Below are positions 16,293 to 51,269 of a stretch of 64,000 nt of DNA, in pieces (position 1 is the first letter of the stretch; each line of letters opens with the position of its first letter). The stretch lies in contig CM114271.1 of the NCBI GenBank assembly GCA_050084515.1, forward strand, positions 3,100,001 to 3,164,000, in the 5' to 3' direction. Below the pieces are notes generated by a model. It was given only the letters and a program-made list of their open reading frames with translations. It was not told the origin of the DNA and did not search any database. The position numbers and the translations under genes were made by a program. Source of the stretch: Blasia pusilla (lineage: Eukaryota).

Positions 16293-17699
16293 GGATGCAA
16301 AATGAGGTTTTAGATTGTACTTTTATTTTTTTCTCAACCTTCACTTTGAGCTTGAACTCTATTCAGCCCTGGGCAAATGATAGATTTTTCCCAGACCTTG
16401 GATGGAAAAAGTGATTGGTTCCACACTTATTATTCCACTGATTTTTCAATTTTCTAAATTTTGAGCAATTTGCAACTCGTCGGACTCAGAGGGGTTGCCA
16501 AAATGTGGAAGAGGAAAAAAAAACTGTGGGACTGCTTCATATATGAACAAAAAAGTGCAAAAAATTTCGAACAAAAATTTTCCTCTCTTCAACCTGACGG
16601 AAACTCTCTTCAAAAAAAAGTATTTATTTCGGTTGAAGGTAGTTTCCTCTCTCCTCTCTCCTCTCTTCCTCTCCTCTTACCGCACCTCTAGTGCAGCCCA
16701 GGTTGAGGTTGCTGCAGTGGCGACCCGGTGTGCTGCAAGAGGCACCAAGCCATTGAGAGGTGGAGTTGAGATTGACCCACCAAAGGGGACCGATGGGCGG
16801 CAGGCCAGGGTTCCACAGTCATTCACATTTTCGGAGGCACTACACACACCATCAATGGTGCCTCGACGACCAGCGGTGCCTATAGCTCAGGCAGGTACGT
16901 CAACGTCACAAGGAGTTGGAGTGACAACTCCTATGCGAGATCAAGTGGAGTCAGTGTTGGAGGTAGCCGCTAGAGTGAGTTGGCATCCGCTATTTTTCGC
17001 CATAGAGTTGGCAACATTGGGAGTTGGACAGCTGAGGTGTTCCGGCTGGCCGCCACGTTGTGTGAGAGTGGAGTGATGACTGCTTCTTGTTCAAAGGTAG
17101 TTGAGGAGGTGGTGGACTTGCCCTCAGAGCCCGTGCTCGGGACGTTCCCCACAGAGTCATGGCACGCGGCGGCGGCGGCAAAGTTGGTAGACATGCGAGC
17201 TCGACTGGCCATAGAGCGAGTAGTGGTGACACTTGGAGTAGTATTACTGGATAACCGAGCTGGAGTATTTCGCTTGGTTAGTCTCACGGGGACAGTATAC
17301 CACCCAAAGCGCGTCCTACTTGATTCGGGAGCGCAGCCCTTGATGTTAGGGAAGGTGCCGTGTTTAGCATTGGGGTTACAGAAGGCCGACATTGAGCCTT
17401 GTCCCTTCTAGATACATACCTCGATTGGGGGCATGTCACCCACGTAGTATATGACTTGACAGGAGATAATTGTCAGAGTCCAGCGAGAGCATGCGACGGA
17501 TAGTGCTATGATACGCACACGTGCGATTACGACACCAGTTGAGTCGTACGATGTGTTGGTGGGGAATGACGCGAGAGCTATAGAGGAGTGTGGACGACCT
17601 CGTGAGGCAAGCATGGAGTCATGCCTTTATCCCGGAGTAGTGAGAGTCTGGTGGCAATCGGGTCGTGGAGTGGAGACGTTGACCCCACTGGATACCACA

Positions 17700-18680
17700 C
17701 CCGTTGTGTGGCAGTGTCTAGAGGAGGGTGTTAAGATGTTACATCTCTTCGGAGGGATTAGCAGTGGATTGGCCGCAGTATTGCAAGCGGGCATACGAGT
17801 GCATCAGTACCTTTATGTGGAGAGAGATGAGATTGTGCGACAAGTATCACTATGTCACGTAGCGAGATTGGTCCAAAGGTATCCTGAATTGTTGTTGGTA
17901 TCTGCAGTACGGGGATATCAGCATACACTACCGCCGACATCTCTTTGGTGGGGGCGCAGGATCTGGATAGAGTTGGCACCATTCATTTGGTGATTGCTGG
18001 ATGGCCAGGTCAGGGTCATTCATCAGCTGGCTGAGGATTTGGATTGCAGGATCCGAGGTCAGGGATGTTTGGGAGATGCTAGGAGTAGTACGACACTTCC
18101 ACGAGAGTCAGACATGTTCTCAAGCGTACATTTTGGAGAACATGCCGTTGTTGGGAGACACTCGTGCACGTGTGATGACGAGGGTGCATCTGGTGAGGTC
18201 CTGGTTGGGACCTGCTGTGTTGCTAGATGCAGCGAGAGTTGGGTCACGTGCCCATCGTCCACGACTATGGTGGACGAACCTGATACCATCAGAGGTACTG
18301 AGTCGAGCATATGATGGAGTCCAGAGAGCACCACATCTCACAGTGGATGCTATTTTGGGGTCAGGGCGTCGATCTCAGGTGGTCACGCGGGATGATGGAC
18401 CACCGTTGGCGATGGCCAAAAGGGTGGGGGAGTTGAGGGCAACCTTATCTACGTTGGTGAGCTTCCCAACATCCCATGCCTTTCGTCAGGGAGGGCCATG
18501 CATGATTTGGGATGAGGTGACCAGACCATTGGAGGAGCCTATAGCAGATGAGCGCAAGTGCGCCATGGGGTTTGCTACCGTACTACGGCGGTGGCAGGGA
18601 TGACTGAGGCATCCCAAGACACGTGTTGGGGGAGGCAATGGACCTCAACTGTCTCACATGGATAGTCAGCCTAGGTATGG
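17700..18680 (+). pseudogene. DNMT3-like C5 DNA methyltransferase domain of G1 (frameshifted; catalytic PC reads PG)
   Basis: Motifs MLHLFGGISSGL (I), GWPGQG (IV, ~18000-18016), YILENMP (VI), SRAHRPRLWWTN (VIII), LGEAMDL (X). Confidence 0.85.
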
Positions 18681-19461
18681 CTGAGCAGAGATGGATGCGA
18701 GTATCATCCATGCCGTCACGTCCACAAGTTGGACCATTGCCTACAAGGTCTGTACAGGCATTGGCTAGGGGCGAGACAAGGAGAGATAGGCACCCATGGA
18801 TTTCTTGGGACGTCATTCGACTAGAGAGTGTGAAGGCAGCCAGAGTAGCACATGTTCATTTTTTGGATGTGGAGCATGGTGTAGGAGGTCAGGGTGGAGT
18901 GGCTGTTGCGTAGGTGGCTAAGGTTGCTACATAGCAACCAAAGCCGGAGGTTGCGCCCTCTCCAAGTGAGGTCACGATGGAGACTTGGGAGCGTGTGATA
19001 GGTCTCAAGTTGATAGGAGGAGAGCAACAGCAAATTCATAGTTTTTTTAGAGGGCATGTTACTTGTTTTGCCTTCATTATGAGAGACTTGGGTAGGCTGA
19101 AGGGTCCCGAGATACGGATTGAGTTGGCTAGTGATACGCCGATCTTTCGTCGACCCTACAGGTATTCCGATATGGAGCGAGCCTTGCTTCAGAGCAGGAG
19201 TCATGATTTGTTGGAGGGAGGACTTGTGGAGTTTCACATGGGGAGTATGCATCTGCCACAGTCATGCCGGAGAAGAAGGATATGTATGGCAATTGGACGG
19301 ATAGGCCGATGTGTGGAGATTACCATCCTATCAACCGACAGACGTGGTACGCCATGCCTACTCTTGAGGAGATCTTTGATGCGGTAGGGCATGCAAAGAT
19401 CTTTAGTACGTTAGATCTCCATGCTGGCTATCATTGGAGGACAGGGAGAAGACATCATTCT

Positions 19462-22062: not shown

Positions 22063-23539
22063 GCTTCGCACCTGGCGGTTCCAACTGTCCGATAGAAATC
22101 CAATGAGTTCCTCACCAAGACTCGCATGAAGTGAATCTCGGGTTGGAATCCAAGTGTGGCATACAAAGTCCACTCCCTTGGATCAGGTTTGGGTTTCGAG
22201 TTCCAACGCCAAACTCCCGTTCCATCCCGTGCCTTTGAAATGCCGTTTGGCGCCCAAAGTGGAGATTCGTGTTCCGAGACATCTCGGAGAGACTCCTCCC
22301 TTACTAGTACTTCTAGGGATCTCCGGGGGCCCCCTACGTTTAGGGAAAGATACCTGGGCCTCTCCAATTGGCCCTCAACCCGATTGCTCTCCCAGTAGTT
22401 TTCGGCCAATATCTCAGCTTGTACTTATGCGTTTGCTCAGATCTTTGGCGCGTTGGAAGCGTCTCAAGATAAGATTTCCAATGCGCCCTTAATTTTCCCA
22501 AATCCATCTTGGAGCTCAACGTTATGGTCCTAAACACAGTCAGATTCTCCCAAACGCTAGTCGTGTTCCAAACTGGTTCTCACCTCTTTGGCAATCAACC
22601 TCCCAAGACTCAACTCATCTCAAGTCTTGGCTTGCGTTTGGTCTAGGTTTCTTGGTCGCAACCACTAACACATGAAAAGCACAACTCTGTTCCGCGTTTC
22701 GTCTCTTAGAATTCTCCAAGAGACCTTTCCAAACGCCTCTCCAAAGCGCAAACCTCGCAGCGTGAGTTCACTTGAGTTCTAATGTTTTGCTTGGCGCCTA
22801 TTTGGTGTTGTTTGGTTATGAGGTCGCGACACTCACCCCTCCTTAGAAGGTTGATGTCCTCATCAACGCAAACCTTGTTGATGTTAAGTTTTGGGAAGCC
22901 AACCCCTTAACACTGAATCGCATTCTGGTAGCTAACCCGCAATTCCTCTTTTGGCTTAAGTCTTAGCTTGTTGCTTGCAGCACTTAGAATTATTAGCTTA
23001 TTCTCTTCGATGAGCCTGGACCAATTCTACATAACTAATCTAAACTATCAAAATAAGCTAACTAAGTCTGCAACCTAACACTCTACTCACTATCTGTAAA
23101 CAACCGCCTGTCTACCTAGCCAACTCGTATTACTTTTGGGTCACTCGTATTCCACTTAGGCGCGTCACTAAGTTCACTTATGCAACATGAATGAGATCAC
23201 CACAAACCCGAAGACAGACTAATCTGCCCCGCCGACGTTAGGGCGAGCCCAAATGCTAGTACTTCAACACTTGATCCTGATCTAGATGCCTTATCTGAAT
23301 ACAAGCTCTCACCTCAAATACTCATTGTTTGGCCTCCTTGACTTACATTCTAAGCATATGAAGAACTACTCATTGCCATGCACTACCAAACCCAAAATCA
23401 CAATCATAAACATTGAATCTCCAAATCCATGCCTTCTTTATTGCAACAACTAAACATTTCTAGTTACAACCGGTTATCGGCCCAAGCTTTCCGATCACAA
23501 GTTATGTCCTTTGCTTCACCGTGTACTAACTCACGTGCC

Positions 23540-23700
23540 TATCTTTGCGATGCTTCTTGCGCGTGTTCAAGATCTGCCTCCGCAATCCAAGTCGCCTCTT
23601 TCACATGGTAGCCTTTCCACTTGACCAAGTACTCGTACTTGGTGGCTCTACGTCTAGAACGCATAATGGTCTCAACCTCAAACTCTGGTTCCTCATTTCT
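23540..23700 (-). CDS. Chromodomain at the chromovirus integrase C-terminus
   Basis: EPEFEVETIMRSRRRATKYEYLVKWKGYHVKEATWIAEADL. Confidence 0.9.
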
Positions 23701-25425
23701 GATGATCGGTTGTGGTCTCAACATCATCCTTCGCTCTGGACGCACATCGTCTTGAAGACACTTCTTCAATAATGACACATGGAAAGTCGGGTGAATCTTG
23801 AACTCGTTTGGCAGCTCCAATGTGTACACATCCTCAAACGGCTTTGCCTTGATCACATACGGTCTAGCATACTTGGCTGACAATTTTGCGGACAATTCCT
23901 TCGGAAGAGTGAGATTCTTTACACTCAACCACACTTGTTCCCCAACTTGGAAACTCACTTGGCGCCGACTTTTGTTAGCATGCTTCACATACCTTAGTTG
24001 AGCCTTGGCAAGACTTTTCCTCGCTCGCTCTTGTTGTTCCTGCATTTCCACTAACAAACATTCCGCTGTTGCTTGACGAGTGTGTGCCGATGTAGCGCCC
24101 CTAAATAGAGCTAAGTCAAGAGGCCCTTCTGGTTCTCTTTGATACGCCAGAAGAAACGGAGATTCTCCGGTTGCAGAATGCTTAGTCGAGTTGTAACAAT
24201 ACTCAGCCATACTTAGCCACTTGGCCCAATCTCTTTGGTCTGCACTCACATAATTCCATTAGTATTGGTTTACGACCGAGTTTAATTTTTCCGTTTGCCC
24301 ATCCGTTTGAGGATGGAAGGCCGTACTAAAGTTGAGTTTGGTCCGGAACCTCCTGAATAGATGTTTCTAAAAGGCACTGGTAAACTTCGGATCTCTATCG
24401 GACACAATGCTCCTAGGCAATCCGTGAGCTCGCCACCAACCATCTAGGAACAGTCGGGAAGTCGTGTAGGCTATCGCAGACTCTCTCGTCGGCACAAACC
24501 TCCCCAACTTGCTTAACCGATCAACTATCACAAGTATAGCATTGTATCCCTCATATTCCAGAAGACTCGTAATGAAATCCATGCTAATGCTTTGCAATGG
24601 TCCCTCCGAGATTGGCAAAGAATGAAGTAAGTCTTGTTTCTTTGCATAAGAAACTCTGTTCACTTGACAGGTCACGCAGGTTTTCACATATTGAGCAACA
24701 TCTTCCTTCATGTTGGGCCAGAAGAACCTTTTGGCCAAAACAGCAAGAGTGGATTTCTCCCCTTTGTGTCCTGCCAAAGGTCCATCATGACATTCCACAA
24801 ACACCTTGGTCCGTAGCTTGCCTTGGCCTACATAGATCATGCTCTGCTTAAACCTTAGCAAGCCGTGCCTCAAACTCACATTGGCCACCTTCTCGCCCCG
24901 CTTTAACTTCCCAAGGTACTCCCTCGCTTGCGCATCCTTCATGTATCCTTCCCGAATCCTTCTTTCCAGGTCTGTTTCATTAGGGAACATTGCTCTCAAC
25001 ACTTGTGTCGTCGATGGCATATGCTCATCCCTACAACTTAACGCATCTGGAATGACATTGTCTTTCCCCGGCATGTGGATTAGCTCCACATTTGTCAACG
25101 CCAAGTTATCATGCCATCGAATTTGCTTTGGTGTTACGCGATCCTAGGTCTCAAAATACTTGAGCGATATGTTATCGGTGAATACTCGAGTCTTATGAAG
25201 TCCCTCATAGTGACGCCACTTCCTCAAGCAGTGAACCACCGTGAACAACTCTTTCTCATGAGTGGGCCATCTCCTTTCGGTGTCGCTAAGCTTCTTGCTC
25301 TCGTATGATACATGTCTTCCTTTTTGCACCAACATTCCTCCAATCGCGAAATCACTAGCATCCGTGTGCACCTTGAAGGGTTGGTCAAACTCCGGCAGCT
25401 TCAAAATTGGTTCCTGCGAAAGGAT

Positions 25426-25793
25426 TGTCATGACCATACGGATTATGTCATAGAGTATAGTGTGCTAGTAGAGGCCATACCTTATGTAGGGCCGTAGTGT
25501 CTAGATAGAGATGCGGTTTCATACATAGGGTTGGAGGTTACTCAATTGAGGGTGACTTTTCTAGTAGGGCCCGCTCTTAGGTTGGAGGATATAGTGTGGA
25601 GTGCACTCAAAGAACAGTTAGTTCTTTGACTAGAGCGTGTTGCGTTGGGAGTAGGCCTTGGTAGTGAGTAGAGCTCTTCGCTATGGTGGTTCCCGCAAGC
25701 TTCGACCTGGATTCTCCCATCTTGGAGTGGGTTTGGCTCGATTGTATGTGATTCTATATGTGTTTTATGACAGTAGGTCTTTCATGGATTTCA
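25426..25793 (+). repeat. G2 repeat A1 (368 bp)
   Basis: Direct repeat of 34685-35052. Confidence 0.95.
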
Positions 25794-27212
25794 CTCAAAG
25801 AACTAGAGTAGATCGATGGTAGCTTCGATTGGGGATCAGTAGGATCTGGTTAGGGCTGATTGTGTACTCAACCGTGGATATTCGTGGCTTGTGGCCTATG
25901 TTGGAGGTGGGAATCTGATGCGTATTTGGTTGGGAAAGAAGCACCTTGTTGAGAGATTTCCAACGCGCTTTAGATCGCCGGATTTCGTCAAGGGAGTTGG
26001 AAGTTATCAAGGATTGAAGATTCTAGTTCGTGTTCGACGGTTTTCTAATGTGGAGAGCTTGGAGTGCGGAAGCTCTGTTGAAGTTCATCCAAATTAGGTG
26101 AGAGGTTCTTGTTGCTACTTGTATTATGATCTCATGTGAAGCTATCTGCTTGAGTGTGTGGAGCGTTGCGGATTTCTGCGTGCATGAATCTAGGCGGAAG
26201 CGCTGTCGGATTTGCGATTCTGGAGGTGTATGGACAACAAGTTTGTCTGATTTTTAGCTCAGAGTACAGAGCTCGCTTGTAGCTGATTTTTTGTGGGGGA
26301 TAGCTATGGTGGGAAATTGAATTTTGGTCAAAAAAGATTCAATTTTGGTTGAGGATTTGTGGAGTAATTGCTGATCAAAATTTCGTGGACTTGCTCAAGG
26401 TCTGGCTATGGTGGACAGCACATGGGAGGGGCTGGTTGGTTGGTGACTTGTGTGTTGTTTTGAGGCTTCAAGGAAACTCGTGGTAGCTCGAGGCGAGTGG
26501 GCGTGAGAGGCAGAGTAAGGAGCAAGGAGCAAGCAAGCAAGCTTGCTTGCTTGGGCGTGAGGTTGTTTTTGCAGGATTTGTGATTTGAGTGTTGCATAAC
26601 TGGTCACCCATCTTTGGGCTATTCTGCCTGGAAGATGCTTAACTGCTGAGTTCTTAACTATGCCAGTGTACACACTGGTGTAGCTCATTTGGTGTTGTTC
26701 AGAGATGTGTTAGGCGCTTTATGCATCTCAGGTTTTTGGTTGATGGACCTCTAACGCATAATACGGCGTAGGCTCTCCATGCAGATGATATTTTCAGCTG
26801 CTACGAGTCCGACTAGCACGTCATCGACTCGCGGCGGAGTAGCTATTGCGTTAGAATTGTGTGGTGGGTTATGTGGATTCAGGGGGCGCCACCTTTGGTG
26901 GATTGTGTTACCTTGATTTCCATTTGCGATTGGAGGATTGTCGTTGGACTTCCTGTGTTTGGATCCCCTCCATCGTTGCTTCTTGCTTGCGCGCCCATTG
27001 TTAGGGTTGACGTTGATTTCCATAGTAGTGTTACTCCTGTGTGCTACGGGTAGTGAGGCTGGAGTGATGACCAATAGACCGTGGGAGGCTTCTTGTGGTG
27101 ATGACAGGTTAGGTTGCCTACACCCATAGCTAGTAGAGCTAGAATTGTACAGCGACATCGACGTCACTTGGTTACTTAGTGGTGGTAATTCGGTGGTGGT
27201 GCGGCATCAGCG

Positions 27213-30200
27213 TTGGTCATCACAGAGCTGTCTGGTGGTCTGGTTGGAGACCGTGGTGTGGACAGTGGTGGTTTCACACGGAATGGATTGAGGTATCGGC
27301 TACCTTTTCCACTTCCGACGGTTGATGAAGAGGAGGACGAGGGTGTTCCAAACACCGAGTCTTCCACGTTGTTATCAAGTGTTGCAACTCCATTGATTTG
27401 GGACATGGACGGGATATATGGGGCCATGAAGGTCCCACGATAATACTCGGGTGCATTGGGCACCATTGAGTTGGAGGACTTCATGCAGGAGTTTGATACG
27501 TGATGTGATATGCAGATGTTGTGGAACGCCACGTTGTTTACACCCTTCTTGGCTTGGAAGGGGTTGTTTCAGCATTTGGAGGGACCACCCATGGATGATT
27601 ACCATGAGTTTAGGAAGGACCATGTTGCTGAGATTGAGGCGTGGAGACAATATTGGTGTCCAGGCTATGTGTCTATCACCCATGGTGGTATTGGTAGTAG
27701 TGCTCCTACTATGCCAGCCAGCCCGACGTTGAGTGGTACGAGTACGAGCCGGAGTGGGGGTACCAGTGGAGGTACTCATGGAGGTACCAGTGGGGGTACT
27801 AGTGCCCCACCATCATTCACCCCGGTTGTAGAGTTCTTCAAGAGGTTGAAAAAGAACTATCAGGGAGTGAAGACAAAGAAGTTGACGAGTCTTCAGAAAT
27901 TTGAGCAAAAGACTGGTGAGAGTCTTCGTAAGGCATACACTCGTATGCGACGCTTGATTTCAGTTACCCATGGTGTGACTGAGGCTCAGGAAATCCAGTT
28001 TTGGTATGGGATCTTGGATAGAGAGTTGCCCCGCACGGTACGTGATGCTACTCTTATGAGTGATGATTCACCCACATTGACCCATGTGTTTGCTCTATCT
28101 GAGAAGATTGAGCTTAACATGGTGAAGGAGAGAGTGGTGACATCCACATTCAGTTGGGATATAACGACTACTTCTCGTGTTCAGCAGCCCACCTCACAGT
28201 CTTGTAGTAGTGGTGGTGGTAGTAGTAGTGGGAGTCGTGGGGGGTACACACGACCTCAGTCAGGTCCTAGAGGGACACTTGCGTAGAGACCATTGCCTTC
28301 ATTTGCTGCCCCGCAGCAAGGACAGTCATGTTGGAGATGTGGAGGTGATCATGTTAGGAGGTTTTGTCCCCAAGAGGATGGGAGACGGACTTTGGAGGAT
28401 GGGCCTCAGTCAGCCCCAACTCAATGTGATCATTGCGGGAGACCAGGTCATCCTCGAGAGCGTTGCTTTGATCTTCATCCAGAGTTGAGATCATGCCGCG
28501 GCCGTGGTGGAGTAGCTTCGAGAGGCCGAGGTGGTAGGGGTGGTAGAGGTGGATCTGTGGTTGGAGAGCCTACGGTGGCTACCCCTACCACTTCGACAGA
28601 GTCAGCTATGGCTGCCATGATTGAGCAGTTGGAGTAGAAGTTGGCTACTATGGCTGGTATCCAGCATAGATCAGGTTTGGGAGTAGGGGCTTCCACCTCT
28701 TATGGAGGGGATGATCTCTCTTATATGGCGAGTGCAGTACAGGTTGAGGCATCAGTTGGAGTTACGAGAGGAGTCACTCGAGCGTCAGAGCCACGTGGTG
28801 CTACTGTGGAGTTGGACCCACAGAGGAATGAGGTTGGGAGGCAAGCTAGGCTTCCCCAGTCATTCTTGTTGTCTGAGGTGCTTAGGACTCCATCCATGGT
28901 TCCTACACAGCCTATTGAGCCGACAGTGGGGAATGAGGCATCTACATCGCGTGTAGTAGACACGGATGCAGCATCCAGTGTAGTATTGCGGATGGCAACT
29001 TCAATGTTGGGATCCCCATTTTTTTCGGCCACGGAGCTGATGGCTTTAGGAGTTGACTTAGCTCCCGTATTTCAGCTAGCAGCCACGTTGTGTGAACGTG
29101 GGGATGTTACTGCTACACGTGATGAGGTGGATAAGGGTATTGCGGTGGAGCGACCCTCTATGTCAGGAGTAGCATGGAGTACCAGTGCTACTTGGCAGGA
29201 AGCAGCGGCGAAGATGGATGCATTACCAGCCCGGCCTACCATTGATCGTGAGAGGCTTACACCTGGTGTATGTATGTTGGACAACCGGAGTGGGATATTC
29301 TGATTGGTGAGTCCTACAGGACATGTGTATAGACCAGATAGAGTCTTGTTAGACTCTGGTGCCCAACCTTTGATGTTGGGAAAGGCGGCATGTATTGGTT
29401 TGGGTATTCGGAGGTTAGAGCTTGAGCCTTGCCCATTCCAAATTCAAACATCACTTGGAGGAGCCAATGATAGGTCTCAATTCATGACACCGGAGAAGTT
29501 TTCTGTGCCGTTAAGACTAGATCATGTGGCTGATAGCTCCCGGTTGGGAGTACCTGCAATGGTCACATCAGCCGAGTCGTATGATGTAGTAGTTGGAGGA
29601 GCAGTATTGTATCCAATGGGTTTTCAGATGGATTATTGGACTAAGATAGCGTCTTATAGACCTGGTTGGCAGTCCGGGGATGGACGTATGAGCCAAGTTC
29701 TTGTGAGATTTATTTATGGGGCTCGACCAGGAGGGTCTTCCCCAACGGTGTTAGCATCTGTGGCTGGTTTTAGTAGAGAAGTCACTTGGCCATGAGACTT
29801 TTTGGAGGGTATTGTTTCTACTATGGATTCTCCTATGCATGAGGAGGTAGAGGAGGTCCCTAGTTTTGCAGCAGTGGCATCCTCATTGTTTGATGTGCCA
29901 CTTGGGAGTTCAGGCGGTGCACTACGGCAGGAGGCTGATCGCCTAGTGCAGGAGGCTTGGTGTGAGGTTGTTATACCTCACGAGGAAGAGGACGCCCCAC
30001 ATCGGACTCCTACTTCTAATCCATTTGGGTTATCCCCTTTGGATACTACACCCATTGTATGGCAGTATTTGCCGGAGGGCATTTGTGTGTTAGATCTCTT
30101 TTGTGGGATTAGCACTGGTTTGGCTGCATTGTTGCAAACCGGTATTCGTGTGCGGAGATACGTGTATGTGGAGCAAGATGAGATGGCCCATAGAGTCTCA

Positions 30201-33200
30201 TCCCGACATATTGGTCAGTTGATGCGGAAATATCCTAAGTTGTTGCCGCCATCAGCTATTCGTGGGTACCAGCGTGCTTTGCCGTCACACATTGCATTGT
30301 TGGGGGCGCATGACCTTGAGAGGGTTAGTCTTGTGGATTTGGTGATTGTTGGATGGCCATGTCAGGGTTATACACGTGTTGGTTGTGGTGAGGGATTACA
30401 CAACCCTAGGTCTCAATTGTTTTGGGAGATGTTGCGGGTGTTACGACATCTTCAGGTTCATCAGGCACGTGCTCCAACTTACATTCTGGAGAATGTTCCA
30501 TTGTTGGGTGACACTCGGACCCGGATGATGGCGAGTGTTCATGAGGTGTGGTCTTGGATTGGACCAGCGGTGTTGTTGGATGCAACGCAAGTTGGCTCGC
30601 GTGCACATCGTCCACGCTTGTGGTGGACAAACTTGTTGCCTAGGGAGGTTCTAAGTTGAGCGTATGATGCAGTACAGCGGGATCCTTTCCTTACAGTGGA
30701 TAGTATCTTGGATACTCGGCGACTTTCTCAGGTGGTGAGGGTTATTGATCGGTCATCCATGGCAGTGGTGAACCGTGTGGGCCAGCCTAGGATGGCACTA
30801 CCCACATTTGTGAGTATTCCCTCGTCATATGCCTACAGGGAAGGTGGTCCCGGGCTTGTATGGGATTCTCATATGCGACAGTTGGTGGAGCCTAACGCTG
30901 ATGAGAGAGAGCGTATGATGGGATTTGCTACTGGTGTGACAGCGGTTGCACCCATTTCTGAGGCTTCACGACGTCATGTGTTGGGTCAGGCCATGGATCT
31001 GAATTGTTTGACTTGGATTTTGAGTCTTGGTATGGCCGAGCATCGTCGACTTCGGACTATGTCTGTGGGTCTTCCACCCCTTATAATGAGCCCTATGGCT
31101 ACCGGGACAGTAGAGGCATCGGCTGGGGGCGAGGAGAGTAGTATTTTGCATCCTTGAAGTAAATGGGATGTAATGGCTAGGCATGTGGAGTTGGTTGCTC
31201 ATGCTGGTGGAGGAGTTATTTGCTCACGTGATGGTGTAGCTAAGGGTGTACTATCTTGTGAGGGGATTGCGTAGCAGCCAATAGCATCATCCTCTCTCTC
31301 TAATGTGCCAGTGGAGGAGACTTGGGAGCCATTACTTGGGCCCAAGCTTACGGGAGGTGAGAAACGACGCTTGACAAAGTTCCTACGTGCTTATAGGAGT
31401 TGTTTTGCCTTTAGCATGAAGGAGTTGTGTGCTTTGGTTGGACCCGGTATACGGATTGATTTGGCTAGTGATACGCCAATCTTCCGTCATCCCTATCGAT
31501 ATAGTGATATGGAGAGGGACCTCATTCAGAGTAGGACATTGGACCTTTTGGAAGCTGGATTAGTGGAGTTGTTGCATGGAGAGTATGCATCAGCCACTGT
31601 CATGCTTGCTAAAAAGGATGTGCATGGCTACTACACGGATAGGCGGATGTGTGGAAATTACCGTCTTATCAATCCGCAGACCAAGGCTGATAGGTATGCC
31701 ATGCCTACACTTGAGGAGATCTTTGATGTGGTGGGACAGGCAAAGATTTTCAGTACTTTGGATCTTCGGGCGGGATACCATCAGTTGCCGATTCGAGAGA
31801 GTGACAAGGCCAAGACAACATTTTTGGGTGTCAACTCTCATGGCAAGGATTGTTTGTACCAATGGAAATTCTTACCCTTTGGGTTGAAGAATGCACCTGC
31901 CGAGTTTCATAGAGTGATGGACAGGATCCTAGCAGGGTTAGATTTTTTCGGTGTTACATTGATGATATCTTGGTGTTCAGTAACACGGTGGAGGAGCATT
32001 AGATACATTTGCAGATTGTGTTTGAGCGGTTGAAAGCTCATGGTCTACGTTTGCATCCAGGAAAGTGTAAGTTCTTCCATGAGGATGTTGAGTACTTGGG
32101 TCGTGTGATCTATCCAAGTGGTTTGGGAGTTCAGCAAGCAAAGATGGAAGCTATTGCACTTATTCCTCGTCCGGTAGATGTGAGTAGAGTTCGGGCATTC
32201 ATGGGATTGGCGAACTACTATCAGAGGTATGTGAAGGGATTTAGTGCTATGGCAAAGCCTTTGAACCAATTGTTGAAATCAGATCAGAAGTGGCACTAGG
32301 GAGATGATCAGGAGAGAGCTTTTGTGGAGCTCAAGGCCCAGTTGGTGGCGGCGCCTATCTTGAGGAGACCTATCAAAGGACGCCCATTTCAGTTACACAA
32401 TGATTGGAATAGGTTGGTACTTGGAGCGGTGTTGACACAACATGATGATGAGCACATGGAGTTTATGGTGGCCTATGCAAGTCGTTCGAATAATGCAGCG
32501 GAGTCGCGCTATAGTTCATATGAGGGAGAGTGCTTGGCAGTAGTGTGGGTTGTGGCACACCTTAGGTGTTACTTGTTTGGCACACAGTTTACCCTTGTTA
32601 CTGATCACCACCCGCTCAAGTGGTTGATGGAGTCTGACAAGCTTGCAGGGAAGCTTGCACGGTGGGCTCTTATTTTACAGGAGTATGACTTCCAGGTGGT
32701 ACATAAACTTGGAGTTGCCAACCTTGATGCTGATGGGTTGAGTAGGAACCCATGTACTAGCCAAGAGGATGCAACTTGGGCTAGATGGCATGGCGAGGTT
32801 GATGAGGAGATGGTGCCAGGTTGGCATGCATCCGCCTTTTTATGTTGGTTAGGGGTGGACTCTAGTATGGAGGACCACATGACATCTTACTCTAGCCAGA
32901 GGGTAGATGGCCAGCCTTCAGATCCTAAGGTTGGAGATGGTGGTATGGATCAGCGTGATATTCATGATGATGCGTTGATGTTGGAGTTCCTATGGACCAG
33001 TAGGGTGCCAGGCATAGTGAGTGCTAAGGAGCGAGACCGTATTCTTCAATGTGCTAAGAGGTATCACTCGGAGGGAACACATATTCTCCATGTGTGGGAG
33101 GATGGTAGAGTACGAGTAGTGCCCCATTTGGCTCAGAGAGAGCGCATTGTGCGACATGGCCATGAGGAGTTGGGACATTTTGGGGTGAAGCGTACGTATA

Positions 33201-34403
33201 ACTTACTCCTTGGTCAGTATTGGTGGCGTGGCATGCATACTCAGGTGCAGCAGTTGGTGTCACATTGTATGGTTTGTGACCGGGTGAGGGCATCATTCAA
33301 TGCCCCTACACCACAGTTACACCCCTTGCCTATTATGGGGTTGGATTACCGTTGGAGTGTGGACTTTGCGGGACCTTTATCGTTGACTGTACGACATCAT
33401 CGATATGTGTTGGTGATGGTGGAGCACTTCTCTAAGTGGATTGAGTTGGTGGCATTACTTGACAAGGCAAGTGAGGGAACGGCGTATGCGTTTCTTGATA
33501 GAGTGCTTAGTCATTTTGGTGCACCACCAAGTGAAGTCGATCGACGACCAGGGTCTGAGTTTGGGGGGTAAGTTTCAGGTCTTGTGTGACAAGGCGTTGA
33601 TTGATCATCGAACCATGTCTCAAGATCATCTAGAGGCGGATGGTTTGGTTGAGCATGTGATTCAGACGGTGAAGAGGGCATTGCGCAAGTATGGCCTACA
33701 AAAGGGGCATCTTGGAGACTGGAATATTCAGTTGTCATGGTTAGCCATGGGGTATAGGTTTAGTCGCCAAGCATCCTTGGCTTCCTTCTCACCTTATTTT
33801 CCGTTATACGGCCGAGATCCAGACTTGCCAGCATCAATTTATCGGGAGTCTAGTGAGGTGGTGAACCTTGATGACCCAGAGATGTGGATGAGAGTGTGTT
33901 CTCAGCGGGCAGAGTTCTTTCGGAGAGTTATGCCAACAGCCTTTGAGAATCTTGCCATTGCTCAACAGAGGGATACGTTACGGTATGCAACTATTCAGGG
34001 AAGAGGTTATCGACCATCGATTCGTAGGTTCCATGTGGGGGACTATGTCTATTTGTAACAGATTGCACCGACAATGTTGGATGTGACGGCAAGACGCACT
34101 ATTTTACGAGTGCGAGAGGTGTTAGCTTCTGGAGTTCTCATGTTGGAGGGTCGTGATGGAGTTGTTTGGAAGGACCATGTGCGTAATCGTGCGTCATGTC
34201 ATCTTCCAAATGTGGATGGTACTGTTGACCCAAGCTTAGCCATGATACGTGCTAGCTTGAGATGCATGTTGAGTGGGTCTGCTGGTAACGCAGCCCGTAT
34301 GTCGGTGTGTGATCGGTGTTCTAGGGGTTGGCACATGATGTGTTTGACTCCACATATGGATGTTGTTCCTACTGGAAGGTGGGTTTGTCCTCGATGTACT
34401 TAG
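27213..34403 (+). pseudogene. G2 gag-pol polyprotein with embedded methyltransferase
   Basis: Gag with two knuckles (28293-28637); protease VLLDSGAQPL (~29340); MTase (30060-31050); RT (FSTLDLRAGYHQL, LPFGLKNAP); RNase H (SSYEGECLAVVW); integrase (H-H-C-C, WSVDFAGPL); PHD. About 11 single stops and 2 frameshifts. Confidence 0.95.
30060..31050 (+). CDS. DNMT3-like C5 cytosine methyltransferase domain of G2 (catalytic PCQ intact; one internal TGA at 30657)
   Basis: VLDLFCGISTGL (I), YVYVEQD (II), DLVIVGWPCQG (IV, 30357-30365), YILENVP (VI), SRAHRPRLWWTNLLP (VIII), ERERMMGFATGVT (IX), RRHVLGQAMDL (X). Confidence 0.92.
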
Positions 34404-34576
34404 GAGAGGTAGATGAATTGATCTTTGCATTATATGGATTACGGATGTGCGAGTAACGATGGGGCAACCTAGCACCCGGCCTTCTGATTCGTGCACCCAC
34501 GAAGGTGTATAGCATGTAGTAGATGTATAGGGCTATCTAGGAGTTAGAGGGACCTAACCGCCAGTTAGGGGGACGA

Positions 34577-35158
34577 GTTGTGGTACACTTGTGTTTGTGT
34601 ATGCTCTCGTCTATGTTATGTATGTATGTGAATATGGTCTGTCAGCGATGTACGTTGTATGACGATGTGGATTCGCATGACAACTATCATGACCATACGG
34701 ATAATTTTGTAGAGTATAGTGTGCTAGTAGAGGCCATACCTTGTGTAGGGCCATAGTGTCTAGGTAGAGATGCGGTTTCATACATAGGGTTGGGAGTTAC
34801 TCAGTTGAGGGTGACTTTTCCAGTAGGGCCCGCTCTTAGGTTGGAGGATATAGTGTGGAGTGCACTCAAAGCACAGTTAATTCTTTGAGTTGAGCCTGTT
34901 GCGTTGGGAGTAAGCCTTGGTAGTGAGTAGAGCTCTTGGCTATGGTGGTTCCTACAAGCTTCGACCTGGATTCTCCCATCGTGGAGTGGGTTTGGCTCGA
35001 TTGTATATGATTCTATATGTATTTTATGACAATAGGTTTTTCACGGATTTCAGTTGTGGTACACTTGTGTTTGTGTATGCTCTCGTCTATGTTATGTATG
35101 TATGTGAGTATGGTATGTCAGCGATGTATGTTGTATGACGATGTGGATTCGCACGACA
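34577..35158 (+). repeat. G2 3' terminal block B1(34577-34682)-AC-A2(34685-35052)-B2(35053-35158)
   Basis: B1 and B2 are 106-bp direct repeats. A2 matches A1. Purine tract AGGGGGACGAG lies just before B1. Confidence 0.95.
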
Positions 35159-37487
35159 GGATCTCTTTGACTCAATTGAACGCTTTATCCACTTCCTCGG
35201 TCTATGTAGTGTTGGAAAACTTTGTGGTCCAATCCGTGAGAGGTTTCACTATTCCCGAAAATTTCTTCACGTATGTCCGCTAAAACTGGACCGCTCTGAT
35301 GAACCTCCCCATCCCCTTCATAGTGGAAGGCGGTTCCCATTCGGCAATTGTGCTTACCTTTTCCATCTCTGGACTCGTTCCATTTGCGCTAACCACATGC
35401 CCCAAGAACTTGATCTTCGTCAAACCAAACTCACTCTTATCCGCATTTGCATATAGCTTGTTCGCCCTGAGTTTCTCAAACACTGTCTTCAAATGTTGAG
35501 CGTGCTCCTCTAGTGTTTTCGAATAGATGATTATGTCATAAATATAGATGATCACAAACTCATCCGTTTCCTTATGAAAGATGGAGTTCATCAAAGTAGT
35601 GAACGTTGGAGGCGCATTACAAAGACCGAAAGGCATTATCACAAACTTGAACGAACCGTATCTCGTTCTACACGCATACTTCTCTACATCCGCTTCGGTA
35701 ATCCGAATCTGATAATATCCTGATTTCAGGTCAATCCGGCTGAAATACTTGGCACGTGCCAATCGATCAAAGAGTTCATCCATCCTTGGGAGAGGATAGT
35801 TGTTCCTTACCGTCACTTTATTCAGCGCCCGGTAATCAACACAGAGTCTCAACTTCCCATCCTTCTTCTTCACAAAGAGGACGGGCGCCCCACTAGGTGG
35901 CTTGCTAGTTCGGATGTAACCCCTCTCTAGGAGTTCACCCAACTTTTTCTTCAACTCAGCAGGTTCCTCTTGATTCAACTTATATGGTGCTTTTGAAGGT
36001 GGTTGAGATCCGGGTATCACCTCAATCTTATGATCAGCCGCCCTATGTGGTGGCAACTCAGTCGGAAACTCCTTAGTCAACACATCTCCAAATTCTTTCA
36101 CAACTCTCTTGAGTGTTTCAAGGATTCCCCTTGAAGCTGAGTTCTGATCTTTGCATCACGCTCACCCCCATTCCAAACCCTCTTGGATGTCCCTGTGTTT
36201 TTTGGTAACTTAGAAAAACTTTTTGGCTCAAAGGTTTTCTGATGTTGGACTTCATCGTCCCCAATCCGCTATGCTAGCTTCAGAAGATCCGCGCACGTCT
36301 CTAGGATGTGAGGCATACGAAAGAGGGACTTTTCGGCGCTCGGTTTGAGTCCACTTAAGAAGATCACCTTTTTCGTATGTTCATCCGTGGAAAGTGCACT
36401 CATGAGTGCACTAAACTCTCGCACATAAGCGCCAAGGGATCCGCTCTGGCGGAACCTCACAACCTCCATGCCATCGCGATACTCCTGATATTCTGGAGTG
36501 AATCGGTTCCCAATCAACTCCTTAAAATCTTCCCAGCTCAACATTTTCCCACGGCCTAGATCTTCTTTATGGTGAGCCTTCCACCAATTGAGAGCGTGAT
36601 CCTTCAGATCCACTACCGCTACAGTCACCTTGTCTTGTTCATCTCCCTTTTTTGCTTTGAAATAAAGTTCGAGTTCCGTTAGAAACTTGCTCACTTTCCG
36701 AGAACGCCCCATTCCTGTGAATGGCGTTGGAAAATTTCTTACAAAGCTTCTTGCCGGAACTAGAGGCTCCATTTGACTTGAATTCCATTATCACCTTGCT
36801 CTGTTCGGCCATCTGATCCGCCATCACCTTCATCAATCCCATCATTTGGATATAAAAGGCCGGATCGATTGAGTTTGGAACTGAAGGTCCCGCGGAAAGA
36901 TTTTCGGTTGAAACATCCTCATGTCTGGGACTCGGCACTTCGAGAGTCGCAATTTCCATCTCTGGCTCTCGGTCCGTCATTGATTCGTCTCTTGGCTTTT
37001 TTGCTTTGACTCGCGGTTTCCTCGGTTCTTCGCCCTTGGTCGCCATTCGCGAGTCTTCACTTTCTCATATCTCCTCCTCGCCTCTTGTGTTCCTCCTCAG
37101 ACGTCGCGATATTTTGGCTACCTTGAGTTCTCCCCAAACGTCCACATCTTCTACGACCCCAATTTCACGCTCATCAAGGATTAGCTCTGACACCACGTGT
37201 CGTGCGCCTACTCTCCTTGAACGCTAATCTTGTTGTTGCGGAAGCGTACGTTCAGTAGGTCACGCTCTCAACGCTGATCTGCATCCAAACACGCACTCTG
37301 GTTAGTCAGGTCTTGGATCAATCAGCCGGATAACTTTCCAAGTTCTCCTCTCGGACTCTCATCAAGCTCACCCTTCCTAGTTTCGCAGTTTACAACACGG
37401 GTAAGTCTCGAAAGACTTGGGACAAACTTTCTGGTCGGTTCAGGAACCTGAAATCGCGTTTCGCGCCTGGTTATGAGGGTCACGATA

Positions 37488-40452: not shown

Positions 40453-42052
40453 TTAGAATTTATCTAGGGTCCCAAAGCTACACTTTTCTCCAGAAAGAGT
40501 AAGATTGACCTCTTCTAGTCTTGTTAGGATCATATCCACATCAAGAATATGATCAGACACAAACTTTCTATACCCATCTTTCACAACCCTCTCAACCCTA
40601 TCTTCTATTGCACATCCCTTTATATGAATATCATCTACAAAAGGAATGGTTTTCTCAAGAATGAACTCTCTCAAGATCTTATTCATTGCACTCTGCATAT
40701 GAGCGACAAAATTTTTTTCTCCTTGAGGTAATGTGCACATTCTTACAAGCCCAAGTGGGGTGCGCATAGTGGTAATATCTTTACTCTCCATAGCTAATTG
40801 GAATTGATCATATCCCGGGTGCAAACCTCCACACCCTAGTATGATGCTAATACTTTTAAAGTTGCCAGAGTCTTGATAAGCACGGCATAAAAGCAAGACC
40901 TTGTACGGCTCAAAAAGCAACATGATTTTACCAGTCTGCATCAGACATTTCTTTCATCAGAATCCAAAGAATCATAGAGAAATACAAAGGTGATGCAAGG
41001 TTGTAGGAGAAAATGAAACACACCCTGAAAATAGAAGTCCTCAACTCTCGCACTGGTAACATTACAATAACTACTACACCTCTCGTGTGTAGAAGGGATG
41101 CAAGGGAAAATGCTTACACTTCATATTACAATTGATAGAAGGTAGTCTTAGGGGAAAAAATGGGAACTGAAATTCCCTTTAAAATATGAATGAAAATGAC
41201 TGTCACTTCAAGCTCCCCTAGGTGCTAAAATCCAAAGATATAATTTTAGCACTCATTTTCCTAATGGTTTCCAAAGAGGTTCTATCCTCCATGCTCCACT
41301 TTATGGAACCACCACCCGCTAGTAATCTCAACTCTCTTTCGGAATTATCAAAGTCTGTGTGAAACCCCTGATAGTAAAGATGCCGATTGAGTCTTACCAA
41401 GGATAAGGTCCCCCGGTCGATGTTGGTCCCCGGGCCAGTACTATCTGGAGATGTTCCATGTGTTGGGGATGGGTTATTATGCTTCTTTTTCTTTGAAGGT
41501 TTCACATCTACAATTTTCGGAGAAGCGTCCAAACCGCTAGAGCCTCCAAGTGTTGTTGATACTGTTCTACGTGGGATTCGTTTCATCTTTTTTTTCTCGA
41601 TCCACATTTCCTAGAGAAGCCTTTGGCACGATGACTCTATGTCTTTTCTTTTCATTCATTTCTTTTGTCATTTGGAACCTACTAGTTCACGAAGAAAAAC
41701 ATAGAGAAAACCCACACCTCAACATATATGATTCTTCCCCCTCTTCTAGCGGAAGACTCTTTCTTTTATCTGCACCCCCATATTCCCGCTCTACAGGAGT
41801 GCTAACTTAGAATCTGAAAACTCCTCTCTACCTTCATAAGACCATCTCTCAACTTATCCCTATTCCTTTCATGACCTACTCGTGCAGTAAGGAATTGATG
41901 TGATCTTGTTCCATCCTGACTTCTAATACGTGCATGATGAGATTCATCATCCATTACTTTGGTCTCCATTCTTGATGCTCTGATGTAAGGTTGCCCAAAG
42001 ATCACAAGATAAGCAGCTCCATTATGAAGAAAGAAATTTTGCTCAATCAACA
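40453..42052 (-). mobile_element. Degenerate Gypsy-type element of another family (protease C-terminus, RT fragment); its upstream part resumes at 56549-56750
   Basis: RT-like TPLGLVRMCTLPQG...IPFVDDIHIKG (40453-40820); protease-like YLVIFGQPYI (41802-42052); SLREVLGKAKRDFHELIID at 56549-56625. The sequence at ~40820-41790 is unassigned. Confidence 0.65.
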
Positions 42053-45000
42053 CTTTTAGGATAGATCGGTGAGATCTAATAGAGCGCCTTCATGAGTAGT
42101 GGAGGACACGCTCAGTAGGTCACGGATGACCTGCTGAAGCCCCAAGAAACCTGAGAGAGCAAGTTTCCCCTTCGTTTCGGCTTATTTGGAGCCATATTGA
42201 GGAACTTACTATTTTAGGTAAGTGCCATTTTGAATATATGATCAACTTTCTATTTTTGGTAAGTGGCCCTTGACCTCCTACATCAGGTCAAGAGCCAAGG
42301 AGGTGACTTGGGAGAATAGGTTACCATGGAGAGAGCTTGGGAGAGGGGAGGGGTATACCTCAAGGAGAGAGAGCTTGAGCGCTCATTCTCTCTTTGTTGA
42401 ACCTCTTGGCATGAGGCGGCGGAGCTATGGTACCTCGCCTTGTGAGTGTAACCCAAGCCTCTCATTAGGAGAGTGGGTTTGGTTTGACATGAGAGAGAGA
42501 GAGTGCACACCTTTGAGAGCTATGTTGTGAGATGGTGGAGAGAGAGATTGGATCTTACTTTACAAAGAGAGAATGAGAGAATGAGAGAATGAGAGAATGA
42601 GAGAGTGAGAGAGCTTCATGGGGGAGCTCGCTGGTCACTCGCTGTTTTTGCAGGTTGGGGACCGTGTTCCCCGTTCAGCGGCTCATGGGAGTGCTCACCG
42701 GAGCAAGGGCTGCTTTCATTATTCTTTGCATTTGCCGATTTTTCGTGTGGAAGAGTGGCGCGCGGAAGCGCTGCCCAATTTTTGATAGGGATTGAGTATG
42801 GGGGCAGGTTGCCCCATGCTGGTGCTCTCGGGAGCACCATGTAGCTCGCTGACTTGTATTTTTACAGATGTTACATTTTCGTTGGGAGAAATCAGCGCGG
42901 GAGCGCTGCCGAATTTTGTGTAGGAGAAAGAGACATTGGGCTTTATGACAGTCCCTGTAAGTTTTTACTGAAATTTTTGATTCTAAATTTTTGTTGATGC
43001 TGGCGTAGATCGTGAAGGTGTGCACACTGTGCAACAAACAGTGCGCAATTTGGAGTTGCGAACAAAAAGTTATGGTCAATCTTGTAAAGCTGCCATTGCT
43101 AGGCGATTTTTAGGGTTAAATTGTGCAAACCCTAAATCAGCCGCCACACCGGCGGTGGCCGTCGCCATCATAGTCACCGTCAACGGTCAACCATCACCGT
43201 CGAAGGTCAACCATCACCGTCGACGGTCAATCGTCACCGTCACCGTCACCGTCATCGGTCGGCCATCACCATCAACGGTCAACCGTCACTGTCAACGGTC
43301 CACCATCCATTGTCCACCTTTTGGGTGCTATTTCCGTCATTACGGAGTGGAGGGTCTTCCACGACGTTCGTTGATTCCTTGACTTGCGTCGCCACCGCGT
43401 ACTTTGTTTTGGCCGCCACCGTCATCGCAGATTCTTCATCAACCAATGATGGCAGATGACCTCCGGTTATGGTGTTTGAGTTTCGATTTCATGCTGCTAT
43501 GTTGTGATTGGTAGCCGCTCGACGACGATCGAGTATTGTGCCGTGACGCCTGTAGCCGCAACGCGCCGTCGATTGCCGTGCCGTGCCGCTCGTGGCCGCA
43601 CCGCACCGTCTCGATCGCGGAGCCGCACCGTCATCATGGACCAGAGTGTGGGTTTATTGTTGATTGAGGAGGGTATGCCGCCGAGTGCCGCATCCCACCG
43701 TCGAGGGCCGTGCCATTCGTGAGCGTTCGCCTGTCGCCCCGCAACGCCGCACCGTTTACCGGGACCGCATTGTCTATCGAGGAGTTTTGAGCAAGATCGT
43801 GACGGGAGGAGTATGACTTGCTGATTGGAGGAGTTGTCTCCACGATCGAGTTGGGGTCTAGATTTGCGATTCCGAGGAGCGACATCGACATGTGTTCAAA
43901 GTTACCCATTCTCGGTCCTTTACCCCGCGTGTGAGGGATTCGGGATTTATTTGGGGATATTGGGTGTGTGGATGCTGAGAGCATCATTTATGTATGTGGT
44001 TTAGGGGACATAGACCTGTGTGGGATGTCCGGAGTTGAGGGTAGGTTGTCGATGAGATGATAGCCTGGTCGATTTGCCGCACCACGCCGCGTATTGTCGC
44101 ACGTTACACGTCTCGGGGAGAGAGAGTGTAGATCGAGTGCCGCATGTTTGGGATGAGTGATTGAGGGATTCCTCACGAGGTTCAGAGTGATCAGGTGAGA
44201 GGGGCACGAGGGTCATCACGGAGTCTGTTCGGGACTTTGAGAGGCGAGGTGGTGAACCCGAGAGTAGCTCTAGAGGTTTTACGCGGAGTGGCGCGAGGTT
44301 CCAAGGGTCTCCACGTGAGGGACCACTTTGACCTCCTTCTGTGTCATCGTCAGACGAGGGGGAGGGTGTAGAGGAGTTTGTGAGCACATCGCCACACATT
44401 GTGAGTGGTCCTACCAGTTGGGCGTACGAGATGGACGACGGGATAGAGGACGCGTGGGTTTTGGTGCGGTGAAGAGGCATTGATTGAGTTGCACGATTTT
44501 ATAGCAGAGTTTAGGAGTTGGTGCGACTCCTCATGGGCCAGGAACTCTAGAGAGTTCAACCGTTCTGACATGATGGAACGGTATGTTCCAGCATTTAGAG
44601 GGGGCGCCCATGGACGATTACCATGAGTTCTCTCAAAGATATGCATGTGAGATCGAGGCGTGGAGGCTCTACTATGACCCACATTATATGTCATGGACGG
44701 AGCCATTCCCAAATGAGGAGGAGGAGTCAGGAGAGGCTACTGCCTCTTCCACTAGTGACGTTTTAGGAGGGGTCACTCGCACGAGAGTAGTTGCACCGTC
44801 TAGTCGGGTTTGTCCCAGGTTCAACCCTATGGTTGAGTTCTTTGTTGAGTTGAGGATGAGCTACCAAGGGGTACGGACGGAGAAGTTGCGGAGCATCCAC
44901 GACTTCCAGAGGCGCCCGGGTGAGAGTTTGCGTGAGGCTTACACTCGCTTGCGCCAGTTGATCAACGTCACTCAGGGGGTGACAGAGGCTCAGGCTATCC

Positions 45001-51000: not shown

Positions 51001-51269
51001 ACTATTCGGGGTGGTGGTTATCGACCAACTATCCGGAGGTTTCATGAGGGAGATTATGTCTACTTGCAGTAGACGGCACCGACGATGTTGGATGTGACTG
51101 CAGGGCGCACTATCCTAAGAGTGCGTGACATTTTGCCATCGGGTGTTCTCTTGTTGGAGGGACGCGATGGTATGGTATGGAAGGACCATGTGCGTAATTG
51201 TGCGCCATGTCACCTTCCTAACATTGATGGTACAGTAGATCCGAGCTTAGAAGTAGTTCCTGCAGGCTT

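Follow-up and report, generated by a model that had tools for sequence, protein, structure and literature searches.

How does a retrotransposon that encodes a DDE-type integrase come to carry, in place of two identical long terminal repeats (LTRs), the split direct repeats known from tyrosine-recombinase elements? The question is raised by G2, an element at positions 25426 to 35158 on the plus strand of a 64,000-nt stretch of Blasia pusilla DNA (GenBank assembly GCA_050084515.1, contig CM114271.1, positions 3,100,001 to 3,164,000; hereafter the window, whose numbering is used for all positions in it). A repeat search, self-blast of the window and direct reading all give G2 the order A1–ORFs–B1–ac–A2–B2. 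In our reading, this anatomy is best fitted by a circle-type intermediate that would be opened at an integrase site lying inside the LTR, with one asymmetry that this does not explain. Below, we describe the ends and coding content of G2, the spread of its layout among relatives, and the signals for reverse transcription and the transcripts that bear on how such an element might replicate.

Split repeats and exact ends of a Gypsy-type element

The two A repeats of G2 (25428-25793 and 34687-35052) align over 366 bp at 92.9% identity, and the two B repeats (34576-34682 and 35052-35158) align over 107 bp at 96.3% identity (repeat search and self-blast). The element begins with TGTCATG, closes with CACGACA, and is flanked on both sides by GGAT. 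A tblastn comparison places it within the RNase H region of a minus-strand Ty3/Gypsy element to which it is unrelated, and once G2 and one GGAT are taken out, the RNase H frame of this host runs unbroken across the joint (…afn*vke|ilsqepilklpefdqpfkvhtdasdfaigg…), a stretch that we take to fit the usual RNase H motif …PILxxPDFxxPFxxxTDAS…. Restoration of the host frame indicates that the ends of G2 and its 4-bp target duplication are exact. The host itself occupies 23539-25425 and 35159-36155 and is about 30% identical in protein to G2 in reverse transcriptase (RT), RNase H and integrase.

The A start and the B end are 7-bp inverted repeats of each other, and placed head to tail they give the consensus CATGACA-GC-TGTCATG, a perfect 16-bp palindrome. 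At the internal B1/A2 joint of G2 this palindrome is present in decayed form, such that both integrase ends are copied inside the element. An earlier note on this DNA had described A1 at the 5′ end and B1-AC-A2-B2 at the 3′ end, true ends TGTCATG…CACGACA with a 4-bp duplication, and the recreation of these ends internally as CATGACA-ac-TATCATG, and had attributed them to an element with an rve integrase and not a tyrosine recombinase; our reanalysis agrees with it on each of these points.

The long plus-strand frame of G2 is decayed, with many stops and a frameshift. Its translation gives the domain order gag, zinc knuckles, protease region, C5-DNA methyltransferase, RT, RNase H, H2C2+rve integrase, and PHD finger, with Pfam matches to Retrotrans_gag (weak), DNA_methylase (PF00145, 7e-9), RVT_1, and RT_RNaseH (1e-32) followed in the 3′ part by Integrase_H2C2 (3e-15), rve (2e-5, which is under Pfam's own cut-off, 32.6 bits), and a C-terminal PHD finger (1e-7). 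No Pfam protease family matches G2, and the protease region, between gag and the methyltransferase, is named by position only. A separate database look-up of the methyltransferase piece gives PF00145, and its translation shows FCGISTG, PCQ and ENV, which we take to be motifs of C5-methyltransferases; two further copies in the window, G3 and G1, are homologous there (tblastn). A tyrosine recombinase (Phage_integrase) had no Pfam match in the six main frames or in eight further ORFs of 84-151 amino acids on both strands, and these eight matched no other family either.

Compared with known groups, G2 has the gag–protease–RT–RNase H–rve integrase order of Ty3/Gypsy (Metaviridae) elements along with their TG…CA inverted ends and short target duplication, but where these elements have two identical LTRs, one per end, it carries A only at the 5′ end and B-A-B at the 3′ end. 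It shares the split direct repeats A1–B1A2B2 with the DIRS order, but not the tyrosine recombinase that stands in that order in place of a DDE integrase. Both a C5-methyltransferase within a Gypsy pol polyprotein and DIRS-like A–coding–B–A–B repeats are combined in KnitGypsy-Dnmt3, an element of the alga Klebsormidium nitens. We assign G2 and G3 to the Ty3/Gypsy-type retrotransposons of the KnitGypsy-Dnmt3 kind, a match made to the published description and not by sequence identity.

The layout and its joints among relatives

G3 (42050-56548) is 70-74% identical to G2 internally and has the same A–int–B–A–B order; self-blast pairs its A repeats at 42050-43475 and 51721-53156 and its B repeats at 51602-51714 and 56428-56548. 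The second A repeat of G3 contains a tandem array (52601-56432) of seven units of about 555 bp, compared to a single unit in A1. Each full unit contains the 42 nt that follow A1 position 43433, and the true end of the G3 A repeat is therefore probably 43475, with the last unit truncated at the B2 joint.

Outside the window, metagenome contigs were scanned with an integrase-PHD alignment, which matched 361 stretches; 270 were confirmed and the best 80 kept. The kept loci are relatives 53-80% identical in protein, and they were annotated with A, B and leader references and de-duplicated by flank. A usable 3′ end was present in 49 of the 80, representing 33 independent flank groups, while the other 31 run off the contig or belong to families outside the A/B/leader references. 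The 3′ end is B-A-B in 13 of the 33 groups and B only in 16; two groups have B-A followed by an inverted part of A, one has an internal deletion, and one is interrupted by another element. Self-blast also revealed B-A-B in a family only 54% identical in protein (L065-67), whose element is truncated in RT and lacks its 5′ end. At the other side, 15 loci (12 independent) retain a 5′ end together with 528 bp or more of upstream sequence, and in each the order is flank|A–leader. B or A-B preceded A in none of the 12 independent 5′ ends and in neither G2 nor G3, and ordinary twin LTRs were absent from all copies collected from the window and the metagenomes.

The 4-bp target duplication matches at all four positions in 7 of the 11 elements with both ends (G2, L013, L022, L040, L006, L007, and L056) and at three of four in L017 and L075, for a total of 9 of 11 at three of four or better; it is ambiguous in L039, in which the A start is damaged, and unrecognisable in G3. 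Within an element, the two repeat pairs have diverged to a similar extent (A/B percent identities of 92.9/96.3 in G2, 96.0/93.4 in G3, and 92.1/93.8 in L022), suggesting that both pairs were created at insertion. The differences between G2 and family reads or contigs are mostly transitions (A>G, G>A, C>T, T>C), which fits decay of methylated copies.

The two internal joints behave differently. The templated B|A joint is constant in length. Element ends take the form TGTCATG…CA(C/T)GACA, the 2-nt spacer of the palindrome varies by transitions only (GC, AC, GT, AT), and ACA-NN-TGT is kept in all four families examined (G2-like, G3, L042, and L066). At the A|B joint, the A end is placed directly on the B start, exact up to transitions, in most B-A-B loci, including L076/78, which has a later insertion in B2, and L027, which has a nearby duplication. 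The irregular cases are a 20-nt filler in L013/18 and a two-sided deletion in G3, which removed about 7 nt from B and 42 nt from A. This spectrum fits a joint that is made afresh in each cycle. In G2 the joint reads TTTCA|GTTGTGG, whereas it is …GATTG|TTGGAG in L042 and …CTTGG|TTTGG in L066; the lack of TG…CA in the latter two implies that the presumed cDNA tips are not conserved and that the G2 form is an accident of its subfamily. The small unrelated element in B2 of L076/L078 (about 640-1464 nt past the ORF end) starts with (G)TCGC(A/G)(A/C)CCCC, and a similar sequence is also found after A2 position 172 in L043/L044.

These copies allow three expectations of the earlier note to be judged. 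Its placement of the duplication-flanked ends at the A start and the B end extends to most two-ended elements, and the layout, with its recurrence in G2, G3, 13 of 33 independent 3′ ends and the 54%-identity family, is a family trait and not an accident; a preponderance of twin LTRs, which it had named as the refuting outcome, was not encountered. Its reading of the A2/B2 joint as CA-gt-TG is correct for G2 but is peculiar to that subfamily, and the variability that it had proposed to compare at this joint is limited to a minority of loci, the joint being exact in most.

Reverse-transcription signals, transcripts and the remaining window

A polypurine tract lies directly 5′ of B in G2, G3, a partial copy at the window edge (G0), L042, and the G2-like loci. 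Directly 3′ of the A end is CTCAAAGAACT…, the only block conserved at the start of the leader between G2 and the metagenome copies. In G2, 11 nt of this candidate primer site (25795-25805) are exactly complementary to a sequence within A1 itself (25619-25629). The exact self-complement in A reaches 16 nt in L022/L049 and 9-11 nt in L006, L007/8, L044, L048, L057, and L075, so that a complement of 9-16 nt is present in 10 of 13 rows, equivalent to 8 of 11 independent elements; A1 of L013, L039 and L040 yielded none. The complement is located about 26-30 nt downstream of a TATAAAG motif in mid-A, and transcripts beginning at this point would have their initial bases paired with the primer site. 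In the predicted leader fold of L022, the 5′ end pairs with the primer site in both the minimum-energy and the centroid structures, and the fold overall is not unusually stable (z = -1.42).

Two independent insertions (L002 and L011/L015) carry the A2 end, the primer site, and then the reverse complement of A[1..~171], ending …GTCATGACA|flank. In our reading, these snap-backs began with a strand switch located exactly at the primer/site duplex and were then cut at the integrase-type end that comes next, in which case they would be fossils of the pairing in use. In a deletion derivative (L017/L060, locus positions 8293-8650), the A end plus 14 nt of primer site is followed directly by the end of RT, with about 6.1 kb lost and the breakpoint right after the primer site. 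In G2, about 1.7 kb between the primer site and gag (25794-27503) is without a Pfam-recognisable ORF, and the sense strand has a strong excess of G over C in this region (GC skew of +0.27 in the 26001-28000 bin).

A tRNA primer site was considered and rejected: TGGTAGC occurs 22 nt past A1 in G2 and TGGTAGCC about 36 nt past 43475 in G3, neither adjoining the repeat, and the candidate is missing from the L040 and L022 leaders. ARAGORN identified no tRNA gene in the 64-kb window. The earlier note had likewise seen no tRNA site after A1, and a self-primer site at the A end would explain why; its proposal that B+A behaves as the LTR gains from the purine tract adjoining B and the candidate self-primer site adjoining the A end. 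If plus-strand synthesis originates before B and minus-strand synthesis after A, the LTR of reverse transcription would be B+A, and the full cDNA should be BA–int–BA.

We aligned two raw RNA-seq runs of the same species label to G2 at a likeness of at least 88%. Family transcripts span the whole element, mostly in one direction, which is sense if the libraries are of the usual kind. Reads crossing from the B end to the A start carry ACA-GC-TGT (43 and 66 in the two runs), the GT spacer (35 and 50) or the AT spacer (9 and 9), with a depth at A position 25 of 143 and 199. Reads that join B to A demonstrate that transcription continues across B1 and the palindrome and reaches A2, a requirement of the model described below. 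Two internal joints were also seen in RNA, one from 32918 to 33931 that interposes 9 other nt (16 and 31 reads) and one from 27490 to 34012 (6 reads in each run); these represent expressed deletion derivatives or possibly subgenomic or spliced RNA linking the leader to the PHD-finger end.

Positions of the features are collected in Table 1. Elsewhere in the window, G1 is a third methyltransferase-bearing copy on the plus strand (3251-4249 and 16723-19434), broken after its zinc-knuckle region by about 12.5 kb of other sequence, which includes a 169-bp tandem duplication (93% identity) at 14317-14687. Near 19440, the RT of G1 is truncated by a repeat with an inverted copy at 37198-37452, and neither end of G1 was found. 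The last part of the window (58001-64000) has a G+C content of 0.25-0.35, compared to about 0.5 elsewhere in the window.

Table 1. Repeats, ends and signals of G2 and of related copies in the window
Feature	Position	Strand	Basis
G0, 3′ part of a G3-like copy (integrase C-terminus, PHD finger, polypurine tract, B1 start), cut by window edge	7-1444	-	
Left target-site duplication, GGAT	25422-25425	+	direct reading
G2 A1, 368 bp, opens with TGTCATG	25426-25793	+	repeat search, self-blast, reading
TATA-like motif in G2 A1	25590-25596	+	
Putative self-primer sequence in G2 A1, TAGTTCTTTGA	25619-25629	+	
Candidate self-primer binding site right after A1 end, CTCAAAGAACTA	25794-25805	+	complementarity, conserved in relatives
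G2 decayed polyprotein	27504-34403	+	translation and Pfam
G2 polypurine tract, AGGGGGACGA, adjoins B1 start	34567-34576	+	reading; kept in G3, G0 and metagenome loci
G2 B1, closes with CATGACA	34577-34682	+	
G2 decayed palindrome at B1/A2 joint, CATGACA-AC-TATCATG, internal copy of both integrase ends	34676-34691	+	
G2 A2, 93% identical to A1	34685-35052	+	
G2 B2, 96% identical to B1, closes with CACGACA	35053-35158	+	
Right target-site duplication, GGAT	35159-35162	+	direct reading
G3 A1	42050-43475	+	first bases decayed; no recognisable target duplication
G3 polypurine tract, AAGGGGGGCGA, then B1 (TTGGAGATATTTTGG…GCGCACGACA)	51585-51714	+	
G3 A2, opens with TGTCACATC after GC spacer; last ~555 bp is 7 tandem units	51717-56432	+	
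G3 B2, 93% identical to B1, without first ~7 nt of B (imprecise A/B joint)	56428-56548	+	

Replication models and known systems

The reading that we favour, and that we judge slightly likelier to be right than wrong, is that the LTR is B+A, that integrase uses the internal palindrome, and that the cDNA tips are joined and the resulting molecule opened near the primer site. Transcription would run from mid-A1 through B1 into A2. Minus-strand synthesis would be self-primed in the manner of Tf1 at the site adjoining the A end, by pairing with sequence about 30 nt downstream of the mid-A TATA box, and plus-strand synthesis would start at the polypurine tract adjoining the B start, yielding a complete cDNA of BA–int–BA. 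The DDE integrase would then ignore the tips of this cDNA and act on the two halves of the 16-bp palindrome at the B|A boundary inside the LTR, with predicted cleavage after CA on both strands of CATGACAGCTGTCATG; by our own reasoning, a staggered cut after each CA would leave 3′-recessed CA ends that carry 5′ overhangs of 2 nt, as processed retroviral ends do. The A end (U5 end) would be joined to the B start (U3 start), either as a two-LTR circle made by host end-joining or through an end-to-end jump of the finishing plus strand. Opening of the joined molecule at the palindrome nearer the primer site, and its insertion with a 4-bp duplication, would give A–int–B–A–B, a circular permutation of BA–int–BA and, in this scheme, the only form that could be transcribed into replicable RNA. 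We found no series of homologous strand transfers that copies B2 from RNA, and the A|B joint would therefore have to be remade in each cycle.

Several observations weigh against this reading. The two-LTR circle opened inside the LTR, as proposed in the earlier note, fits the layout and the signals, but the form A-B-A-int-B that it also predicts, from a cut at the circle's other, identical palindrome, was seen in 0 of the 12 independent 5′ ends and in neither G2 nor G3. A simple circle model thus needs either a directional step or fast loss by A×A deletion. Joining could possibly be directional, for example if the last-finishing plus strand jumps from the A end onto the complete left end; the left palindrome could instead integrate first, with the cDNA tips sealed afterwards; or the A-B-A form could be quickly lost by deletion between its two 340-bp A copies. 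In addition, 16 of the 33 independent 3′ ends are of the A-int-B form, with matching duplications. Such ends may arise when a linear cDNA is cleaved at both of its palindromes or a one-LTR circle at its only one, or through later B1×B2 deletions, and copies of this kind, lacking a 3′ A, are expected to be incapable of replication. Decay is evident in every copy seen, those from the metagenomes being full of stops. G3 has no exact self-primer complement of at least 9 nt; RNAduplex on the G3 leader returned only GC-rich noise, and the same method did not rank G2's own site first. RNA fragment starts heap at 25587 (23 and 16 molecules in the two runs), about 30 nt upstream of the TATA-predicted start, and this pile-up may mark either a genuine transcript start or the edge of an alignment. 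The reads derive from other copies of the family, with only 0 and 2 reads in the two runs at least 99% alike to G2. Finally, layout, element ends, target duplication, signal positions and transcripts spanning the palindrome are established directly, and we infer self-priming, the precise RNA termini, the joining step with its circle or linear cDNA, and integrase cleavage from signals in the sequence.

A different account of the B-only 3′ ends makes A–int–B the primary product, through cutting of both LTR palindromes of a linear cDNA or of the single palindrome of an open-circle intermediate, with B-A-B a rarer form that alone propagates. It draws on the abundance of B-only ends (16 of 33) and on the matching 4-bp duplications in three elements (L006, L007, and L056), and it requires no joining step for these products. 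We nevertheless regard it as unlikely: A–int–B has no 3′ A, so that its RNA would be without a 3′ R or promoter part and the family could not persist, and the B-A-B form would still need a joining step. At one locus both forms are present (B-A-B in L034, B only in L056), a pattern consistent with secondary deletion between B repeats of 107-117 bp. The two contigs share a flank that is 99% identical over 7.6 kb while their interiors are only 91% identical, and at least one of them may therefore be chimeric.

Replication in the manner of DIRS, PAT and Ngaro elements would give A–int–B–A–B directly and in one orientation only, with a partial cDNA completed on the internal B1-A2 joint as a splint and with a DDE integrase that replaces the tyrosine recombinase and trims the ends at CA. 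This accounts for the repeat layout, which equals that of DIRS-order elements (PMC5890265, Fig. 4c legend), for the single permutation seen (0 of 12 independent 5′ ends differ), and for an invariant internal B|A joint next to an A|B joint that is usually precise. We consider it distinctly improbable even so, given that an LTR scheme with LTR = B+A calls for the polypurine tract and the primer site at exactly the positions they occupy and that, by our reasoning, B2 could not be copied from RNA by homologous strand transfers when both signals are in place. The RT, RNase H and integrase are moreover of Gypsy type, with no tyrosine recombinase in the ORFs scanned, and the snap-back variants indicate use of the primer site. 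Rearrangement of an ordinary LTR element (LTR = A+B or B+A) in this one copy, or an assembly artefact, has next to no chance of being correct and is refuted by the copies collected: it has in its favour the general frequency of such artefacts and the fact that metagenome contigs can be chimeric, but the layout is shared by G2, G3, 13 independent loci from metagenomes and a family with 54% protein identity, its joints are carried by DNA contigs and by RNA reads from independent runs, and a published description agrees.

Together, the mapped tract, candidate self-primer site, palindrome, target duplication and snap-backs turn an unexplained layout into a testable model. If the favoured reading is true, routine action of a DDE integrase at a palindrome away from the cDNA tips is possible, and a joint of cDNA tips can be a productive intermediate, a role long debated for retroviral two-LTR circles. 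The broader proposal, that a Gypsy lineage has moved its integrase sites from the LTR tips to a templated internal palindrome and that each productive insertion passes via a circle-type tip joint and is opened at another site, is tentative, and we put it somewhat short of an even chance. Under this proposal, the family would follow, naturally and as an obligatory route, the old circle-junction model of retroviral integration, and would represent a DDE-integrase element convergent on the DIRS repeat layout. In practical terms, LTR finders will mis-bound or miss this family, and its A–int–B derivatives are without any repeats.

The closest published counterpart is KnitGypsy-Dnmt3 of K. nitens (de Mendoza et al. 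2018, Nat Commun 9:1341; PMC5890265), which shares a Gypsy-type pol with a Dnmt3-like C5-methyltransferase in the polyprotein and whose repeats are, in the words of the Fig. 4c legend, "the same as that of a DIRS retrotransposon". The earlier note had taken the layout to be foreign to rve-integrase Gypsy elements; it is in fact already in print as a remark in this 2018 legend, where it is left unexplained, and the passages on this element in that paper give no mechanism, ends, target duplication, polypurine tract, primer site or palindrome, although its supplements may hold more. Our literature search, which did not cover subscription journals, found no printed mechanism for the layout. What is new here is the polypurine tract at the B start, a candidate Tf1-like self-primer site at the A end, and the conserved palindrome inside the LTR as the integrase ends.

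DIRS elements, to our knowledge, make no target duplication. The order as described, comprising PAT, Ngaro, and the non-autonomous TOC1 of Chlamydomonas (PMC9940879), shares the A1–int–B1–A2–B2 arrangement with the G2/G3 family, which is distinguished by an H2C2+rve integrase, TG…CA-type inverted ends, a 4-bp target duplication, and the absence of a tyrosine recombinase. In Tf1/Sushi (Tcn1) elements, a primer site beside the LTR pairs with the leader of the element's RNA and takes the place of a tRNA site, as the candidate site of the G2/G3 family may do in those elements where a complement is present; for mosses, Neumann et al. 2019 (PMC6317226) discuss a prediction of Tf1-type self-priming in the Tcn1 clade. 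These elements differ in having ordinary twin LTRs, and the possible likeness is one of primer site. Retroviral two-LTR circles, lastly, share a palindromic …CA-NN-TG… joint of integrase ends as an internal cleavage substrate: cleavage of palindromic LTR-LTR junctions is described for the integrase of the foamy virus PFV (PMC1180852) and has been reported for that of HIV-1 (PMC1905944). In the retroviral case, the palindrome arises only on ligation of two LTR tips and the provirus is not permuted, whereas in the G2/G3 family the palindrome is templated in every LTR and the A|B tip joint stays in the integrated copy.

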